Positions 7,113 to 38,894 of a stretch of DNA of 64,000 nucleotides are shown one piece after another. A program made the position numbers and the translations under genes. The DNA lies in contig OZ244950.1 of NCBI GenBank assembly GCA_965222435.1, forward strand, positions 1,707,273 to 1,771,272, in the 5' to 3' direction. Source of the DNA: Candidatus Poribacteria bacterium. Its GTDB lineage: Bacteria; Poribacteria; WGA-4E; PCPOR2b. Every line of letters begins with the position of its first letter. Positions within the stretch are counted from its first letter, which is position 1. Under the pieces are notes generated by a model. That model did not search any database. It saw only the letters and a program-made list of their open reading frames with translations, and had not been told where the DNA came from.

Positions 7113-8246
7113 ATGTTAAAAATTATTGACAACGGCATCATTTCCCACCAGAAAGAGCGGGGAGCGTACATGCCCGTGATCACCCCCCTCACAGACGGTA
7201 GTTTCATCGCCTGTCAGCATGTCGGGCAGGGGCTAGGCACACCGGACAATCATATCGAGATACTTCGTTCAATGGATGGGGGCGCAACATGGGTCAATGA
7301 AGGGAGCATCCATCCCGGCGGCACGCCTATTGCTTTGAATCCCGATGAAATCGGGGCGGACGGATGGTCTTATCGGGGTCCAAAGATTAGCGAGGTTCCA
7401 GACGGTCGCTTGGTGATGAACGCTACCCGTTTCGAGAACGAGGGCGGCACGCTCTTTGACACGGAATCGGAAGCCTTGCAGCGTCCGGAGATTCTGCTGT
7501 TCTGGTCAGAAGATCAAGGCAAAACGTGGTCAGAACCGCAGGTCGTGCCGGTAGACCTACCGCCCGAAAAATACACATGGAACGGGGCTGGACCTCTCTT
7601 GCAACTCGTGCCGGATCGGTGGATGTACCCCCTCGAAACGTGGAAGCCCGAAGGCTATGAAGGTCCTCCCGATCAGAAGGCAGCGGCTGTATTCTCCGCA
7701 GATCAGGGAGAAACGTGGGGAGAGTTCACCGTCGTCGCAGATGACCTCACAGGCGCGTTGCTCTGGTGGGATCAGATGTGCGCCTTGTTACCGGATGGAC
7801 GCATCTATACCCTAATCTGGACGCACCAGTACGGAACCTCCGAGGACTTGACGAACCACTGGGTGATCTCTGAAGACGGTGGACGTACTTGGTCCGAACC
7901 CCGACCGACAAATCTGCGCGGTCAGGTCTGCACCCCCATCCCGCTGCCCGACGGTCGCGTGGCGGCAATCTACAATTTCCGACACGAACCCCAAGGCATC
8001 CATGTGGCACTGACCGAAGACCTTGAGAATTTCGACGTAGAGAACGAGGTCGTGGTCTTTGATGCAGGAAAAGAGGCAACCCTCGGCGAACCTGAGAACG
8101 AGAACTTCCTCGCTGAACACATGCAGATCGCTTTTGGCAAGCCCGGTGGGACAACCCTGCCGGACGGGGATGTGATGACCTATTTCTGGTGTACTGTGGC
8201 GGGAGTCACCCATACGCGCTGGGTGAAATTGCGATTGGAAGGCTAA
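7113..8246 (+). CDS. BNR/Asp-box repeat protein (sialidase-like glycosidase)
   Basis: Four Asp-box motifs S/D-x-D-x-G-x-T-W (MDGGATW, DQGKTWSEP, DQGETWGEF, DGGRTWSEP). Confidence 0.65.
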   Translation: MLKIIDNGIISHQKERGAYMPVITPLTDGSFIACQHVGQGLGTPDNHIEILRSMDGGATWVNEGSIHPGGTPIALNPDEIGADGWSYRGPKISEVPDGRLVMNATRFENEGGTLFDTESEALQRPEILLFWSEDQGKTWSEPQVVPVDLPPEKYTWNGAGPLLQLVPDRWMYPLETWKPEGYEGPPDQKAAAVFSADQGETWGEFTVVADDLTGALLWWDQMCALLPDGRIYTLIWTHQYGTSEDLTNHWVISEDGGRTWSEPRPTNLRGQVCTPIPLPDGRVAAIYNFRHEPQGIHVALTEDLENFDVENEVVVFDAGKEATLGEPENENFLAEHMQIAFGKPGGTTLPDGDVMTYFWCTVAGVTHTRWVKLRLEG

Positions 8247-8253
8247 TAAAAGG

Positions 8254-8309
8254 GAAACCGAGTTTTTTCCCCGGTCACGGGATCCTCTCGGACTTGAAAA
8301 CTCGGTTTC
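8254..8309. terminator. palindromic hairpin (gaaaccgagtttt...aaaactcggtttc) followed by T-rich run
   Basis: 13-bp inverted repeat with extended loop, 8 nt after the BNR gene stop, then tttctttctt; member of a recurrent hairpin family (see 12439, 33510). Confidence 0.4.
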
Positions 8310-8381
8310 TTTCTTCCGCTATCGGTTTTTGTTGTATGCTTTCTTAACACGAGCTAGCAATGATAGAAAGGAACAGTTCAG

Positions 8382-9143
8382 ATGGATTGGCAAAAGGATT
8401 CACAACAACTCAAAGATGCCTTTGACCGAGATGGATTTGTGGTCATTCCCGGTTTCTACACCCCGGAAGAGACAGCGGCGTTAAACGCTCATATTGATCG
8501 GTTCATTGCGGAGACGTTGCCCGGATTGCCGTCGGACGCAGCCTTTTACGAAGCCAAGGGGCAGACCGAAAGCATTATGCGGTTACAGGGCATGGCGTCT
8601 TACGACAGCCATTTCAAGGAACTTACCGAGAGCGATCGGTTTGCCAAGCTGGCGGAATTGCTGCTAGACGATGGGGTTATAAGTAAAAATATGGAGTGGT
8701 TCACGAAACCCGCCCGCAGCGGTGCAGAGACGCCACCCCATCAAGATGGGTTCTACTTCATGCTCGAACCAAACGAGGCACTGACGTTGTGGCTGGCATT
8801 GGATACGGTGAATGATGAGAACGGCTGTATCCACTATGCACGGGGTTCTCACCGCCGAGGCATGAGACCCCACCGACAGACAGCCGTGTTCGGGTTCTCC
8901 CTAGGAGTTACGGACTACGACGAAGCGGATTATCAAGAGGAAGCAGCCATCCATGCCGCGCCGGGCGATATGATCGTGCATCACTGCATGACGATTCATC
9001 GCGCAGGTTCCAACCCCACCACGAACCCGCGCCGGGCACTGGGGCTTGTCTATTATGCTCAACGTGCTAAGGCGGATGCAGAACGTCAGGCGGCGTACAA
9101 GAAAGAGCTAATGGAACTATGGGAAAAAGAGGGGAAACTTTAG
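8382..9143 (+). CDS. phytanoyl-CoA dioxygenase family protein
   Basis: 253 aa; PhyH-like pattern (FVVIPGFYTPEE, HQDGFYF, IHYARGSHR, HHCMTIHRAGSN). Confidence 0.7.
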   Translation: MDWQKDSQQLKDAFDRDGFVVIPGFYTPEETAALNAHIDRFIAETLPGLPSDAAFYEAKGQTESIMRLQGMASYDSHFKELTESDRFAKLAELLLDDGVISKNMEWFTKPARSGAETPPHQDGFYFMLEPNEALTLWLALDTVNDENGCIHYARGSHRRGMRPHRQTAVFGFSLGVTDYDEADYQEEAAIHAAPGDMIVHHCMTIHRAGSNPTTNPRRALGLVYYAQRAKADAERQAAYKKELMELWEKEGKL

Positions 9144-9199
9144 AGGTTAGGGCTTGTGCATTTCAGTTCCAAAAGTGAGGTCGGACGCAGACTTCGCTG

Positions 9200-9343
9200 A
9201 TTTTCGCAGATTGCTTTGAACCCCGATCTCATCGGGGAAAAACAGAAAGGCTCATATAAAAAGAAAGTGCAAAATGCGAAGCGAAATTGTAGGGGCGGGG
9301 TCTCCCCGCCCGTAGTACGGGTTGGGGGACCCAACCCCTACAA
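9200..9343. repeat. composite intergenic repeat block (hairpin repeat + GTAG-flanked palindromes, REP/BIME-like)
   Basis: ttgctttgaaccccgatctcatcgggg at 9200..9226; gtagg-ggcgggg...ccccgcc-cgtag followed by gggttggg-gga-cccaaccc-ctac; homologous copies elsewhere in window. Confidence 0.5.
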
Positions 9344-9401
9344 AAACTCGGTTTCTGTTGCACGATTTCTTAACACGAGCGACCATTAATAGGAGTGAGC
9401 G

Positions 9402-10178
9402 ATGCTGACCGATGCACAACTCTACCATTTCGCTGTTCACGGTTGGGTACTCCAAGAGGACGTATTCAGTCCTGAAGAGGTCGATGCCTTCAAGTGCGGA
9501 CTTGATCAACTCTATGAAAGAAAAGTCTCGACAATGAAGGACTCCGAAGACATCAAGAACATCAACAACATGGTGAACTACGACCCAATCTATCGGGATT
9601 GGATGATGTCGCCGAAAATCCTCCCCGTTCTGAAGCAGCTCTTGGGAACACCACCCCGTTTTGAGTGCTGTCACGCGATGATAAAATCCCCACACCCCGA
9701 CCGGACGAAACGGCGCGATGAACTTCGGGATACGGAAAAGATGGGGTGGCATCGCGGCATTCGACCAAAATATGGTATCGTGCCGGCGAACAACCATCCC
9801 TACATCAACACAACCTTCCTCAACAACGCCACCTACCTGACGGACGTTGATCCTGAACATGGCGGCACAATGATCCTAGACGGCTCACACCGAATCGAGG
9901 CGAAGGATTGGAAAGAAATTTTCGATCCCGCGATGGTCGTTCAGATTGAAGCAAAGGCGGGATCGGTGATGCACTTCACGGAGGCGTTGGTTCATACCGG
10001 TGTCCCGATCCTCTCCGAGCAAACTCGCTATACGATGTTCTACGGTTTCACTCCGCCGTGGATGCAGTGTTGGCCCGGATGTAGCCCGACACAGGAAGTC
10101 ATTGACGCCAGCGAAGGGGAACTCAAGGAAATCCTCGGAGGACGCACGGGATATATGGGACAGTACGGACCTGAGTGA
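9402..10178 (+). CDS. phytanoyl-CoA dioxygenase family protein
   Basis: 258 aa; LTDVDPEHGGTMILDGSHR and FTEALVHTG motifs. Confidence 0.7.
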   Translation: MLTDAQLYHFAVHGWVLQEDVFSPEEVDAFKCGLDQLYERKVSTMKDSEDIKNINNMVNYDPIYRDWMMSPKILPVLKQLLGTPPRFECCHAMIKSPHPDRTKRRDELRDTEKMGWHRGIRPKYGIVPANNHPYINTTFLNNATYLTDVDPEHGGTMILDGSHRIEAKDWKEIFDPAMVVQIEAKAGSVMHFTEALVHTGVPILSEQTRYTMFYGFTPPWMQCWPGCSPTQEVIDASEGELKEILGGRTGYMGQYGPE

Positions 10179-10233
10179 GTAGAACCCTACGAACCCAAAA
10201 TCTGAATCCCTTGTGAGAAGGAGGGTATATTCA

Positions 10234-11040
10234 ATGCTATCCGATTTGGAAGTTGGACAATTTTGGACATTCGGGTTCACTGTCTTGAGAGGCTGCCTGA
10301 GCGAAAAAGAGGTAGACCGTCTACAGGAAACACACAATCGCGTCATTGCAGACGCACCGGTCTACAACTATTTCGCCGAGAACGGCACCCGGATGCTGAG
10401 CCCTTTCGTCCAAGCGGACGATGAATTCGCAGAGTTAATCGAGCATCCCGGTGTGATGGAAGCCATGCGCGATATCTGGGGGACAGAGTGTCTCTATATT
10501 GCCGGCAGCGATATGTGGGCGAACCGAGATGACACCCCTTGGCACACCGACGGTCAGCCGGGGCGACAGAACGTCACGCTCAAGACCGCCATATACCTCG
10601 ATGAGCAGTCCAAAGATCTGGGATCGTTGAACCTGATTCCCGGCAGCCACCATCCTGAATACTCTGCAGCACTCTTCCGATCCTGCGGTTACTGGGATAG
10701 GGGAAGACCCCGCCTGCGCCTCGATCCCCATGCAATTCCGGGAGTTCTCTCCGTCCAGACCTGTCCCGGAGATGTTGTGTTGTGGGACAATCGCCTGTGG
10801 CACTCCGCCTTCAAACGCAAGGACGGTCGTCCCCGGCGGACGATGTTTATCGGCTATATACCGGACCCCCAAGATGACCTGCTCGCGATCAAAGACCTTC
10901 GTACGACGATTGAAACTCAATCAACTGAGCAGCAGCCGTTCGTCTATAGCAAGGAGATGATGGAAAAGGGTTGTCCTAGGCGCGAGAAGATGGCGGTACG
11001 GCTAGAGGAATTGGGCGTGGAAAAGGTGAGAGAAACATAA
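10234..11040 (+). CDS. phytanoyl-CoA dioxygenase family protein
   Basis: PhyH-like (LNLIPGSHH, VVLWDNRLWHSAF); start set at internal ATG preceded by aggagg. Confidence 0.65.
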   Translation: MLSDLEVGQFWTFGFTVLRGCLSEKEVDRLQETHNRVIADAPVYNYFAENGTRMLSPFVQADDEFAELIEHPGVMEAMRDIWGTECLYIAGSDMWANRDDTPWHTDGQPGRQNVTLKTAIYLDEQSKDLGSLNLIPGSHHPEYSAALFRSCGYWDRGRPRLRLDPHAIPGVLSVQTCPGDVVLWDNRLWHSAFKRKDGRPRRTMFIGYIPDPQDDLLAIKDLRTTIETQSTEQQPFVYSKEMMEKGCPRREKMAVRLEELGVEKVRET

Positions 11041-11089
11041 CTCTCCGGCAAGAAAACCCACGGAAACATGCGAAAGAAGGAAAAAGACG

Positions 11090-12166
11090 ATGACGGATAG
11101 ATCTCATCCGCTGCGCGTCGGCGTTGTTGGTTGTGGTGGTTTTGGACGCAATGCCTATGTGAACAATGTCGTTGAAAACCCTGACGCCAGCTTGGTCGCA
11201 CTCTGCGACGTCGATCTGGCACAGGCGGAAGCCGCCGCACGTGAAGTCTTTGATGAGGGTGGCAGAGAACCGCGTCCGGCACTTTACGCAGACTATCAAG
11301 CGATGATCGACCAAGAATCTCTTGATGTCGTCATGGTTGGAACGATGGCAGGTGTCCGTCCGCGTGTGGCAATCTATGCGTTGAATGCCGGTGCGCACGT
11401 CCTCGCTGCCAAGCCGATGGCACCGTCCTTGGCAGAGGCGGAGGAGATGCTCCAGAAGGCAAAGGAAGCGGACAGGATTCTGATGGTCGGCTATAACTTC
11501 CGATTCCGCGATGATGCACAGGTCGTGCACCGCTTTATCCGTGACGGTGGCATCGGGACACCCCGCTTTGCCCGTGCTTGGTCATTTGCCCCTAGCGTAC
11601 CAATCCGCGGATCCCACTACAAAGCAAGGTCAGGGGGCGGCTCACTCGCCAGAACTGGGGTTCACGCGATGGACTTGGCAATCTGGTTCCTTGGCAATCC
11701 ACCGCTCATCTCCGTGCATGGCCGGGCGGTCTCACGCTTTGCCACCCTTCCTGCACTGCCCTCCGAATTGGAACCCCTCCGAGGTGACTACGACGATCCA
11801 GATCTGGTCAGCGGCTATGTCCACTTCGCCGATGGCGTCACGCTGTCCGTCGAGAGTATGTGGATGGCACCGCCGCAGATCGGCGATAACGGTGTCGAGG
11901 TGTGGGGAACGCAAGGCTACGTTTCGGTGACACCGTTACAATTGCTGACTTGGCAGGATGGCGATTACGCCGATGTGACCGAGCAGGTTGCTCCGGGCGT
12001 TGCCAATTCCTTCCATGACCACTCGAGCAACCGGCTATGCCGCGAGGTCTTTCATTTCATCGACTGCGTTCTCGGCAGAGCGACACCGCTTATAACGCCG
12101 CAAGAGATGTGGACGGATCAGGCAATCGTCGATGGAATCTACGCCGGCACGAAAGTAGTGAAATAA
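11090..12166 (+). CDS. Gfo/Idh/MocA family oxidoreductase
   Basis: N-terminal Rossmann motif LRVGVVGCGGFGRNAYV and family-typical length (358 aa). Confidence 0.75.
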   Translation: MTDRSHPLRVGVVGCGGFGRNAYVNNVVENPDASLVALCDVDLAQAEAAAREVFDEGGREPRPALYADYQAMIDQESLDVVMVGTMAGVRPRVAIYALNAGAHVLAAKPMAPSLAEAEEMLQKAKEADRILMVGYNFRFRDDAQVVHRFIRDGGIGTPRFARAWSFAPSVPIRGSHYKARSGGGSLARTGVHAMDLAIWFLGNPPLISVHGRAVSRFATLPALPSELEPLRGDYDDPDLVSGYVHFADGVTLSVESMWMAPPQIGDNGVEVWGTQGYVSVTPLQLLTWQDGDYADVTEQVAPGVANSFHDHSSNRLCREVFHFIDCVLGRATPLITPQEMWTDQAIVDGIYAGTKVVK

Positions 12167-12198
12167 GTTGCTAGTTCCGTTGAATCTGACAGCACGTA

Positions 12199-12423
12199 GG
12201 TTGGGTTGAACGACATTCATAAAACATACTTAAATCGCTCCTCTTGGATTGCGGAAATCTATTCAACTTGAAATCTCACAAATTCTAGTGAAACCCAACT
12301 CTTGATACATGGATTAGATGTTGGGTTTCACTGTATCTATTTATAAAACAGTGTTATCGAAAGACTAAACCACGATCGTCATTGATAGCGATGCGCTTTG
12401 AACAGTTCAACCCAACCTACAGC
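12199..12423. repeat. MITE-like element with 16-bp terminal inverted repeats
   Basis: gtaggttgggttgaac at 12199..12214 and its reverse complement gttcaacccaacctac at 12408..12423 flank an AT-rich core with an inner inverted repeat (agtgaaacccaac / gttgggtttcact). Confidence 0.35.
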
Positions 12424-12438
12424 CAACACTGTGCGGAA

Positions 12439-12470
12439 GAAACCGAGTTTTGAAGAAAAAACTCGGTTTC
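12439..12470. terminator. palindromic hairpin gaaaccgagtttt-gaag-aaaaaactcggtttc between convergent genes
   Basis: Perfect 13-bp stem; lies between the 3' ends of the + strand oxidoreductase and the - strand redoxin gene; same family as 8254 and 33510. Confidence 0.45.
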
Positions 12471-12512
12471 AGGGCAAATAACTTTACCCAAAATGGCTTT
12501 TCAAACAGGTTC

Positions 12513-13146: not shown

Positions 13147-13170
13147 TCACGCATTACGTATCACGTTTTA
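13147..13170 (-). repeat. 7-nt-periodic stop-codon motif at gene end (TAA-TGA-TAA-TGA)
   Basis: Minus-strand stops at 13170, 13163, 13156, 13149, covering all three frames. Confidence 0.4.
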
Positions 13171-14346
13171 CGAGGCTTGTACCTCTTCCCATCGCTCCGT
13201 CTCCCATGAGCGTTCAATCGCGCCCAACACCTTAGCCACAGCCAACGCCTCACGAAAAGCAGGCTCACCTTGGTGTCCATCTCGGATCGACTTCAAGAAT
13301 TGATAGGCTTCGATCATCTTCAAATCTTCGTAGCCTAAACCGACACCGGGGCCGGGATTGAAATGTGCATGAAACGGGTGTTCGGGACCACTCACGATGC
13401 GAGTGTAACCATTAGGCGCACCATCGTTGTCAGAAAGAAACAGATGGAGTTCATTCATACGCTCAAAGTCCCAGTGTACCGCGCCGCGCGTACCGTGCAC
13501 CTCAAACGCCATCTGACACTCGGGACCATTTATGACACGGCACCCTTCCAGTGTGCCATGCGCCCCATTAGAAAATTGCACCAATGCACCGACATAATCT
13601 TCGTTGGTGACTTCGCCTATTGGACCATCTGTGCGGACAGAAAAATGCGTACCTTCGCCGGGGGTAGCAAGCGGACGTTCTGAGAAGAAAGTCTCGCGGT
13701 TGCCCACCAAACGGTTGATCGGACCGGCTATCATCTGCGCCATATCAACGACATGCGACATCAGATCGCCCAAAGTACCTAGACCCGCCACCTCACGCTG
13801 AAAACGCCACGACAGCACAGCGTGCGGATTGCTAGCGTAACCCGCAAAGAAACGCCCTCGATAGTGTGTGAGCCTGCCGAGACACCCTTCCTCAATCAGC
13901 TGCCGGGCGTACTGCACAAGCGGTGTCCATCGGTAATTATAGCCCACACAGGTCAAAACGCCAGCCCGTCGAGCGGCATCTTCGATCGCAGCGGTCTCTT
14001 GTGGATTTCGACCAACAGGTTTCTCACAGAAGATATGCTTCCCCGCTTCGGCAGCCGCTCTCGCAATTTCGAGGTGCATATTGTTTGGCGCGGTGATGTT
14101 GACGAGCTCCACCTCCGGATCAGCAATAACCTGTCTCCAATCCGTAGCGTATCTTTCAAAGCCTAAAAACGTCTGTGCTTCACGGGCACGGGCTTCCACC
14201 TCATCGGCGCAGATGACCAAGCGCGGCTGAATGTCACAGTCCTGAAAGCGGATCGGAATCTGTCGGTAGGAGCGGCTGTGCACAGTTCCCATCCACCCCA
14301 TACCGATAACACCGATGCCTATCGTTCGTGCCATAGCTGACCTCAA
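13168..14346 (-). CDS. Gfo/Idh/MocA family oxidoreductase
   Basis: N-terminal [16 protein letters not shown] Rossmann motif; 392 aa. Confidence 0.75.
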
Positions 14347-33490: not shown

Positions 33491-33541
33491 GTTAAGAAAT
33501 CGTGCAACAGAAACCGAGTTTTCAAGAAAAAACTCGGTTTC
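33491..33541 (-). terminator. palindromic hairpin plus conserved flanking motif
   Basis: gaaaccgagtttt-caag-aaaaaactcggtttc at 33510..33541 preceded by gttaagaaatcgtgcaacag, the reverse complement of the motif upstream of the PhyH gene at 9402. Confidence 0.4.
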
Positions 33542-33564
33542 TTTTATAGATAGCAACTAGGTCA

Positions 33565-38472: not shown

Positions 38473-38492
38473 CAGTCACCAAATCAGGGCAT

Positions 38493-38524
38493 AAAAAAAG
38501 CCTCCCCTACAGAAAGAGGGAGGC
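38493..38524 (-). terminator. intrinsic-terminator-like hairpin plus U7 in the leader of the HD-pyrR-pyrC cluster
   Basis: Minus-strand gcctccc-loop-gggaggc followed by ttttttt, about 20 nt upstream of the HD-gene ATG. Confidence 0.4.
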
Positions 38525-38756
38525 ACTTAACCATTCAATAGTTTTTGAGATATGGGAGTAACCGTAAATCATGTGTGATACCCTTTCCTAACCTCGCGGG
38601 ATCAGATTAAAAGGGAAAATTCTTCCATGTACGCCGCTGCCATTAAAACCGTTTTAAGTGTAGCACAATTGATCTATTTTTGCAAGAGAAATGTTGACCA
38701 TTGACATCGTGCGAAAATTCTGCTAAACTTAATCCCATCATTAAAATCAGGACTTA

Positions 38757-38810
38757 CGCAGCGTGTAGGGGCGAGGTCACCTCGCCCGTAGGGAACAACG
38801 ATCGTTGTTC
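38757..38810. repeat. GTAG-flanked double palindrome (REP/BIME-like)
   Basis: gtagg-ggcgagg-tca-cctcgcc-cgtag then ggaacaacga/tcgttgttcc-ctac; same architecture as 9288..9343 with compensatory stem changes. Confidence 0.45.
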
Positions 38811-38894
38811 CCTACCGAAGTGTGTAACCCCTAAAATTGTTAGTCAGCCAGAAAGTACCATTCCAAATTTATTTAGATTGACGGGAGAACATCT

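Follow-up and report, generated by a model that had tools for sequence, protein, structure and literature searches.

GTAG-tagged hairpin dimers, very probably REP elements of the RAYT-associated type, in a Candidatus Poribacteria genome

The DNA analysed here is a 64-kb stretch of a Candidatus Poribacteria genome (contig OZ244950.1), hereafter the window, in which positions are counted from the first letter. The best homologues of its proteins are poribacterial, and it carries three loci (9289-9341, 38765-38815 and 43209-43261) at which short hairpins tagged with the tetranucleotide GTAG are paired head-to-head as dimers. The first two, referred to as copies 1 and 2, are both intergenic. REP-RAYT systems, made of repetitive extragenic palindromes (REPs) and REP-associated tyrosine transposases (RAYTs, or TnpA_REP), are among the few long-lived and vertically inherited repeat systems of bacteria, and they are known mostly from Proteobacteria. 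We consider it very probable that the three loci are GTAG-tagged REP dimers, that is, the DNA partners of a RAYT, a domesticated transposase of single-stranded DNA of the HUH-Y1 type (subclass 2.4), in a genome of the Poribacteria lineage.

The anatomy of the units was read directly from the sequence (Table 1). The preliminary description of this DNA had reported a recurring GTAG-hairpin-GTAG-hairpin-CTAC architecture at copies 1 and 2, which is indeed found at both, although the second had been made to end at 38810, cutting off the closing CTAC of a locus that extends to 38815. The first unit of copy 1 represents the canonical unit type, with three G-C pairs at the foot of its stem. The second hairpin, read on the plus strand, consists of tac, then GGGTTGGG gga CCCAACCC at 9319-9337 and CTAC at 9338-9341, and this closing CTAC forms with the GTAG at 9312-9315 a "double foot" (GTAG...CTAC). 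This second unit is approximately an inverted copy of the first, so that copy 1 is a head-to-head dimer resembling a REPIN (a REP doublet forming a hairpin). Similarly, copy 2 joins a unit with a GTAG foot to a double-foot unit of 28 nt, which has an identical match in another Poribacteria genome (L048 4250-4277; L numbers designate the sequences compared with the window). In the third locus, the units at 43209-43231 and 43239-43261 pair head-to-head, a degenerate unit is also present within 43160-43275, and the unit type of 43239-43261 is seen again in seven of the compared sequences.

Altogether, the units measure 23-27 nt, with perfect stems of 8-9 bp and loops of 2-3 nt, and the distance between GTAG and stem is 0 nt in all eight intergenic units of the window. 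The three-base loops, read on the GTAG strand, are all TCN. Stem feet of the form GGG.../...CCC are present at 9293-9311 and 38769-38787, and double feet at 9312-9341 and 38788-38815. When folded as single-stranded DNA (ssDNA), copies 1 and 2 are far more stable than shuffled sequences (z = -5.9 each). The predicted minimum-energy fold of copy 1 is a single long hairpin, the arms of which agree at 10 of 12 positions, whereas copy 2, a heterodimer whose two hairpins are unrelated, folds as two separate hairpins.

Table 1. Coordinates of the features discussed; positions refer to the window unless an L number is given
Feature	Positions	Strand	Composition or remark
Copy 1, REP unit 1	9289..9315	+	GTAG (9289-9292), GGGCGGGG tct CCCCGCCC (9293-9311), GTAG (9312-9315)
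Copy 1, REP unit 2	9312..9341	-	GTAG, GGGTTGGG tcc CCCAACCC (minus-strand reading)
Copy 2, REP unit	38765..38791	+	GTAG (38765-38768), GGGCGAGG tca CCTCGCCC (38769-38787), GTAG
Copy 2, double-foot REP	38788..38815	both strands identical	GTAGGGAACAAC gatc GTTGTTCCCTAC, perfect palindrome
Third dimer, REP unit	43209..43231	+	GTAG, GCACTGTT tcc AACTGTGC, one mismatch
Third dimer, REP unit	43239..43261	-	GTAG, GTGCGGTT tcc AACCGCAC
MITE (miniature inverted-repeat transposable element) shell of 132 bp holding the copy 1 dimer	9249..9380	+	imperfect terminal inverted repeats GGCTCATATAAAAAGAAAGTGCAA ... TTGCACGATTTCTTAACACGAGC
Copy 2 indel segment, ~91 bp	38736..38826	+	missing from the otherwise alignable intergenic region of L100
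Inverted-repeat element of 225 bp	12199..12423	.	perfect 16-bp GTAG-tagged terminal inverted repeats (GTAGGTTGGGTTGAAC / GTTCAACCCAACCTAC)
RAYT/cas loci of related Poribacteria	L030 4713-7763; L094 1-6729; L095; L096/L097; L098 1978-11114; L099 1342-11797		
Loci of the second MITE family	L008, L010, L014, L021, L032, L035, L053, L055, L060 and others		

Such units are too numerous to have arisen by chance. A strict scan accepted only stems that start right after GTAG, measure 8 bp or more, contain no more than one mismatch and enclose 2-5 nt. It returned nine units in the window, compared with 0.4 +/- 0.6 in Markov shuffles (maximum 3; 200 shuffles), and eight of the nine lie within the three intergenic clusters. 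The 27-nt core pattern matches only copies 1 and 2 in the window and had no match in 100 shuffles; chance is thus no explanation. Nor is the core unique to this stretch, an outcome that the preliminary description had named as fatal to its reading. Indeed, a scan of one genome per species (596 Gb) with the pattern GTAGGGGCNNGGNNNCCNNGCCCGTAG, for which about one match is expected by chance, yielded 93 core loci. The majority belong to metagenome-assembled genomes of Candidatus Poribacteria, and the other hosts are cyanobacteria (Anabaena, Tolypothrix, Planktothrix), Chloroflexi, Deltaproteobacteria, Bacteroidota and Ignavibacteria. The surroundings of the core are of at least five unrelated types, and a complete poribacterial chromosome contains up to about eight strict 27-mer loci. 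A larger duplicated segment shared by the two window copies can also be set aside, as they have only the 27-28 nt core in common. A phage origin was rejected, no core match being present among 2.9 million viral contigs, and so was a CRISPR repeat array: the window has only two core copies, 29 kb apart, and the tandem units found near RAYT genes are spaced by 1-25 nt.

The stems vary in a concerted manner. Between copies 1 and 2, the change of G to A in the first stem is matched by a compensatory change of C to T, as had been noticed earlier, and the same holds on a larger scale. The search pattern left two stem positions per arm free, and these are fully Watson-Crick in 90 of the 97 core copies, which fall into five stem types (GA/TC, GG/CC, TG/CA, GC/GC and CG/CG). 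From 27 distinct dimers, RNAalifold recovered both hairpins, the second closed by GTAG/CTAC, with compensatory pairs such as A-U 15 / G-C 10 and A-U 15 / G-C 11; these counts mirror a few subfamilies and not many independent events.

A RAYT gene, which the preliminary description had proposed to look for, is accompanied by GTAG-hairpin units in six of the six poribacterial genomes that were fetched and examined, but none was detected by tblastn in the 64-kb window. In L030, two core units lie immediately 5' of an open reading frame (ORF) of 172 aa, and one core-like match lies inside the gene. The product of this ORF matches Pfam Y1_Tnp at 25.4 bits (cutoff 23), and among the NCBIfam families it matches "REP-associated tyrosine transposase" (REP_Tyr_transpos) best, at 63 bits, for an equivalog cutoff of 80. 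Further homologues with their flanks were obtained from L094, L095, L096/L097 (L097 duplicates L096), L098 and L099, each locus holding 5-10 strict GTAG-hairpin units. Units are found on at least one side of the gene in all six loci. In L099 and, from a reading of the sequence, in L094-L096, they are found within the gene and on both sides of it, those upstream on the strand of the gene and those downstream inverted (e.g., GGGCGGGGcaaCCCCGCCCCTAC). Both unit types of copy 1 (GGGCGNGG and GGGTTGGG) adjoin RAYT genes, the latter in L095 and L099, and variants with G-T pairs (CCTCGTCC) are frequent among the units in this position. In L094, L095, L098 and L099, strict units are even located in frame within the RAYT gene.

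The poribacterial RAYTs, which range from 172 to 288 aa, share the motifs NHIH (PNHIHGI), WQ (IWQRNYHDH) and YIQ[DN]NP. Right after the HUH motif, they carry a variable insert made of VGA[RG]SPRP / RRGEVSSP repeats, which are translated REPs: GTAGGGGCGAGGTCTCCTCGCCC translates to VGARSPRP. A profile of eight homologues compared with the PDB retrieved E. coli TnpA_REP (4ER8) as the best match (E = 0.014), with the HUH and Y-motif stretches aligned. A phmmer search of the PDB with a single RAYT sequence gave no match, and the AlphaFold2 model built from the eight-sequence alignment was too poor for use (mean pLDDT 38). As a separate observation, positions 2560-2990 of L094, directly 5' of the RAYT start codon, are occupied by about 15 tandem REP-derived units of 28 bp (cgtaggggcgaggtcacctcgtccatat), some with small deletions.

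In all six genomes, cas5 and cas3 flank the RAYT gene, and the three have the same orientation. L098 and L099, for which wider flanks were available, exhibit an apparently complete type I operon (cas6-cas8-cas7-cas5-[RAYT]-cas3-cas4-cas1-cas2), where the cas8-like gene corresponds to Cas_CXXC_CXXC and cas7 to DevR, and where BatD and CopD genes are located upstream in both. The simplest reading of this arrangement is the vertical inheritance of one old insertion. It could also be imagined that the RAYT is co-transcribed and works with the type I cas operon, the REPs of the window being then the footprint of a Cas-linked HUH nuclease that might, for example, process ssDNA during interference or spacer acquisition, or for which REP hairpins might serve as regulatory or decoy substrates; we hold this to be quite unlikely. 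A literature search for a link between RAYT and cas3 or CRISPR, or for Poribacteria together with IS200, retrieved nothing relevant. The constant position of the gene in the cas operon is a lead for further study and not a result.

Both copies are missing at the same sites in close relatives. The site of copy 1 is empty in L104, where a neighbouring protein is 97% identical and the spacer measures 47 bp, compared with 258 bp in the window (9143-9402). Similarly, the segment that contains copy 2 is lacking in L100, whose protein neighbouring this site is 94% identical; this segment of about 91 bp has weak inverted ends and a possible TAAAAT duplication. Hence, copies 1 and 2 are recent gains or losses. 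More broadly, the region 7113-12166 comprises a BNR/sialidase-like gene followed by three tandem genes of PhyH-family dioxygenases and a GFO_IDH_MocA oxidoreductase gene, and every spacer checked in it is longer in the window than in L104 because of inserted repeat modules.

The position of copy 2 deserves attention. A promoter-like site (TTGACA-17-TAAACT, 10 of 12 matches) is present at 38701-38729, and the copy 2 segment begins 7 nt downstream. Copy 2 therefore likely lies, as far as the sequence indicates, in the mRNA 5' untranslated region (UTR) of the DHDPS-family gene at 38895, and its hairpins could affect the stability or translation of this mRNA. The same intergenic region harbors a PyrR binding site on the minus strand (Rfam, 38491-38618, 54.5 bits, at the gathering score), downstream of which HD-domain, phosphoribosyltransferase (PyrR-like) and dihydroorotase-like genes follow on that strand.

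Placed between a promoter-like site and a start codon, with stems maintained by compensatory changes, the double hairpin might be viewed as a small RNA or a cis-regulatory RNA structure, conserved for a function at the RNA level, for instance as a 5' UTR element, an mRNA stabiliser or a terminator. The frequent G-T variants beside RAYT genes would also speak for it, and effects of REPs at the RNA level have been reported (PMC3733652). However, we judge this explanation very improbable. No Rfam family matches the loci, the PyrR leader being the sole match in the window; the genes that flank the copies vary; and units also occur in tandem arrays and inside coding sequences. Furthermore, relatives with flanking genes of 94-97% identity lack the element at these positions, and it is thus dispensable for those genes. 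An intrinsic terminator in particular was rejected, since no terminator-like T-run follows the hairpins.

Copy 1 is contained in a longer shell. The segment 9249-9380 matches discrete elements of about 132 bp with 85-95% identity in many Poribacteria, where the flanks are non-homologous and some loci contain two copies. The ends of this MITE family are imperfect inverted repeats of about 24 bp (GGCTCATGTAAAAAGAAAGTGCAA), and target-site duplications of 8-9 bp border at least six of 12 copies (e.g., TAGATCGAT, TTCAAACTT, AATGTCAA and ATACTTTT). Around the copy of the window itself, no duplication could be defined through the L104 empty site, owing to a rearrangement at the left boundary. The terminal repeat is similar to the end adjoining an IS1595-family transposase gene in L103, which suggests that an IS1595-family element is the autonomous partner of the MITE. 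IS1595 elements generate 8-bp duplications. Since copy 1 sits inside a MITE with inverted ends and 8-9 bp duplications, the enzyme that brought it to this place was most likely a DDE transposase, perhaps one of the IS1595 family, and not a RAYT.

A second MITE family, found in other Poribacteria (Table 1), has the ends AACGTGAGTTTGATA / TATCAAACTCACGTT and A/T-rich target duplications of 5 bp. Its cargo is a dimer composed of a GTAG-GGGCGAGG-hairpin and a GTAG-GGGTTAGG-hairpin-CTAC, and single chromosomes (OZ242381.1, OZ244616.1) contain six to seven copies or more. With two shell families holding REP dimers, such dimers evidently ride in MITEs repeatedly. The terminal inverted repeats of 9249-9380 are also those of another MITE in the window, at 46633-46828, whose interior is different, made of C-rich hairpins and a CCCCCCGATaaATCGGG-TTCAAAGCAA module and devoid of the GGGCGNGG REP.

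These carriers raise the question of whether the hairpins could be mere internal parts of MITEs moved by DDE transposases, with no relation to RAYTs and a GTAG that is incidental. The inverted ends and duplications of the 132-bp family, the same dimer and the 5-bp duplications of the second, the resemblance to an IS1595-family end, as well as the location of copy 2 in a segment with weak inverted ends and a possible duplication, would all be in line with this proposal. It nevertheless seems quite unlikely to us, as it does not predict that the core accompanies RAYT genes in every one of the six genomes, with strict units inside the reading frame in five of them. Moreover, the core is spread over several phyla and five or more unrelated flanking contexts, and the MITE at 46633-46828 combines the same ends with a different cargo, so that shell and core are separable.

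Both the presence or absence of units between close relatives and their nesting in MITEs argue for selfish spread. This bears on the possibility that the units are binding sites of a host DNA-binding protein (a nucleoid protein, gyrase or a regulator) kept for chromosome organisation. The units are palindromic and intergenic, and the REPs of E. coli and the bacterial interspersed mosaic elements (BIMEs) that they form bind IHF, DNA polymerase I and gyrase (PMC6006769). Nothing in the present analysis points to such a protein, however, and its role would be secondary to the REP identity of the units and not an alternative to it; we therefore regard this explanation as extremely improbable.

The reading of the loci as REP dimers is thus the one we retain, and the REP/BIME-like interpretation already put forward in the preliminary description is supported by anatomy, dispersal, covariation and the presence of a RAYT in relatives. 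Several points weigh against it. The RAYT scores below the NCBIfam equivalog cutoff (63 versus 80 bits), the cognate enzyme is seen in relatives only, and cleavage by the poribacterial RAYT is a predicted activity. The window's own MITE copy has no clear target duplication, and for copy 1, as for families A and B in general, the MITE shell accounts better for the spread than a RAYT does. Finally, the number of strict-core loci per chromosome (up to about eight, variant units being uncounted) is well below the numbers of classic REPs.

How a RAYT would act on these units can be proposed by analogy with TnpA_REP (PMC3479197, PMC8266576). In the ssDNA state, for instance at a replication fork, each unit would fold into a G-C-rich hairpin of 8 bp, and the RAYT would recognise this hairpin together with the GTAG at its foot. 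The GTAG would act as a guide that selects a nearby CT or CA cleavage site, a role described for TnpA_REP (PMC8266576), and this site may be the CTAC that ends the double foot. Cleavage and rejoining by strand transfer would then disseminate or rearrange the units. Because recognition would depend on structure, the stems would stay paired through compensatory changes, giving rise to subfamilies such as GGGCGGGG, GGGCGAGG, GGGCTGGG and GGGCGCGG. RAYT-mediated cleavage and mobility, like any effect on the expression of neighbouring genes, are thus putative properties of this system.

Other repeats are present in the window. The preliminary description had listed 43160..43275 and 12199..12423 together as related GTAG palindromes. 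Both are real, but they are not of one kind, the former being a REP dimer and the latter an inverted-repeat element of 225 bp that is related to REPs by its tag and is a different type of element. Its ends are seen again in L020 and L048, and the whole region 12167-12505 is missing in the close relative L104. A recurrent hairpin with a 13-bp stem (GAAACCGAGTTTT ... AAAACTCGGTTTC) is found at 8254-8311, 12439-12470 and 33509-33542, with a half copy at 9345-9357, and is often followed by TGTTGCACGNTTTCTTAACA, which corresponds to the right end of the MITE; compared with L104, 24 bp are inserted into the hairpin loop at 8271-8294. A short module, CCCCGAT-n2-3-ATCGGGG followed by TTCAAAGCAA, is present at 9200-9237 (minus strand) and 46716-46750 (plus strand), and in L018 and L069 related pieces (CCGATAAATCGAGAC) lie within REP dimers and split them. 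Two tandem ORFs (44061-45239, 392 aa, and 45337-46536, 399 aa) contain the same palindromic stretch, flanks included (AAGGCCTTGAtcgTCAAGGCCTT at 44316 and 45622), and thus look paralogous from their sequence; a third ORF of 392 aa is encoded on the minus strand at 13168-14346.

GTAG-class REPs and subclass 2.4 RAYTs are known; the host phylum Poribacteria is new, and no earlier description of REPs or RAYTs in Poribacteria was found in the searchable literature. The present data document a REP-RAYT system of the subclass 2.4 type, with several REP subfamilies, in Candidatus Poribacteria, and reveal REP dimers inside two different MITE families. The clean pairs of occupied and empty sites in close relatives should be useful for studying the spread of REPs and promoter-proximal change. 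For annotation, the present findings account for conserved GC-rich hairpins in poribacterial intergenic regions and for the low-complexity inserts (VGARSPRP / RRGEVSSP) of poribacterial "transposase" genes.

Among known systems, the preliminary description had chosen enterobacterial REPs and BIMEs for comparison. The REP reading stands, but the E. coli elements are not the most fitting comparator, a place that belongs to the REPs of TnpA_REP subclass 2.4 (PMC6006769). The E. coli system (4ER8; PMC3479197, PMC8266576) does share the GTAG followed by a hairpin, the pairs in opposite orientation and an HUH-Y1 enzyme. On the other hand, the palindrome of E. coli REPs is imperfect and contains a bulge, in contrast to the perfect 8-bp stems of the poribacterial units, and the sequence match between 4ER8 and the poribacterial RAYT is weak (E = 0.014).

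REPINs, which have been defined with RAYT groups 2 and 3, offer a second comparison. As in the REPINs of Pseudomonas fluorescens (Bertels and Rainey, 2011, PMC3116915), one half of copy 1 nearly repeats the other in inverted form (GTAGGGGCGGGG, against GTAGGGGTTGGG as reverse complement), its predicted fold is one long hairpin, and the halves co-vary between families A and B. Unlike REPINs, copy 2 has an unrelated second hairpin and forms no long hairpin, the MITE carriers obscure any spread as a unit, and the RAYT group differs.

The GTAG superfamily comprises 24 numbered families, defined by stem-loop palindromes of 20-40 bp with an unpaired GTAG at the stem end and many dispersed, mainly extragenic copies; subfamilies are distinguished by complementary stem changes, and dimers are head-to-head or tail-to-tail (Di Nocera et al., 2013, PMC3733652). 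The poribacterial elements resemble this superfamily by their units of 23-27 nt, in keeping with stems of 6-13 bp and short loops that begin with T, by their subfamilies with complementary changes, and by their head-to-head dimers, including heterodimers. The GTAG-15 dimers of A. variabilis are likewise nested in longer palindromes, and the RAYT gene flanked by REPs corresponds to a REPtron, here in related genomes only. The Poribacteria stem sequence was not found in the accessible portions of the text and supplements of that study (PMC3733652). In contrast to that description, the outer palindromes are here MITEs with target-site duplications.

The closest counterpart is subclass 2.4 of TnpA_REP (Quentin et al., 2018, PMC6006769; RAYT group 4 of Bertels), whose enzymes of about 194 aa present the motifs NH[IFV]H, WQ and YIxNNP, and whose REPs have a stem foot of three G-C pairs as well as a "double foot" (5' GT[AG]G ... 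3' C[TC]AC). Candidatus Poribacteria are not mentioned in that work. The elements described here share with this subclass the 5' GTAG foot, the stem base of three G-C pairs, the double foot, the enzyme motifs and a taxonomic scatter that includes cyanobacteria and Bacteroidota. As the motifs of the poribacterial protein, its insert and the shapes of its REPs match subclass 2.4, the system is assigned there. It differs from the other members by two features: canonical and double-foot units are fused here as a fixed GTAG-hairpin-GTAG-hairpin-CTAC module, and the RAYT gene is located inside a cas operon.

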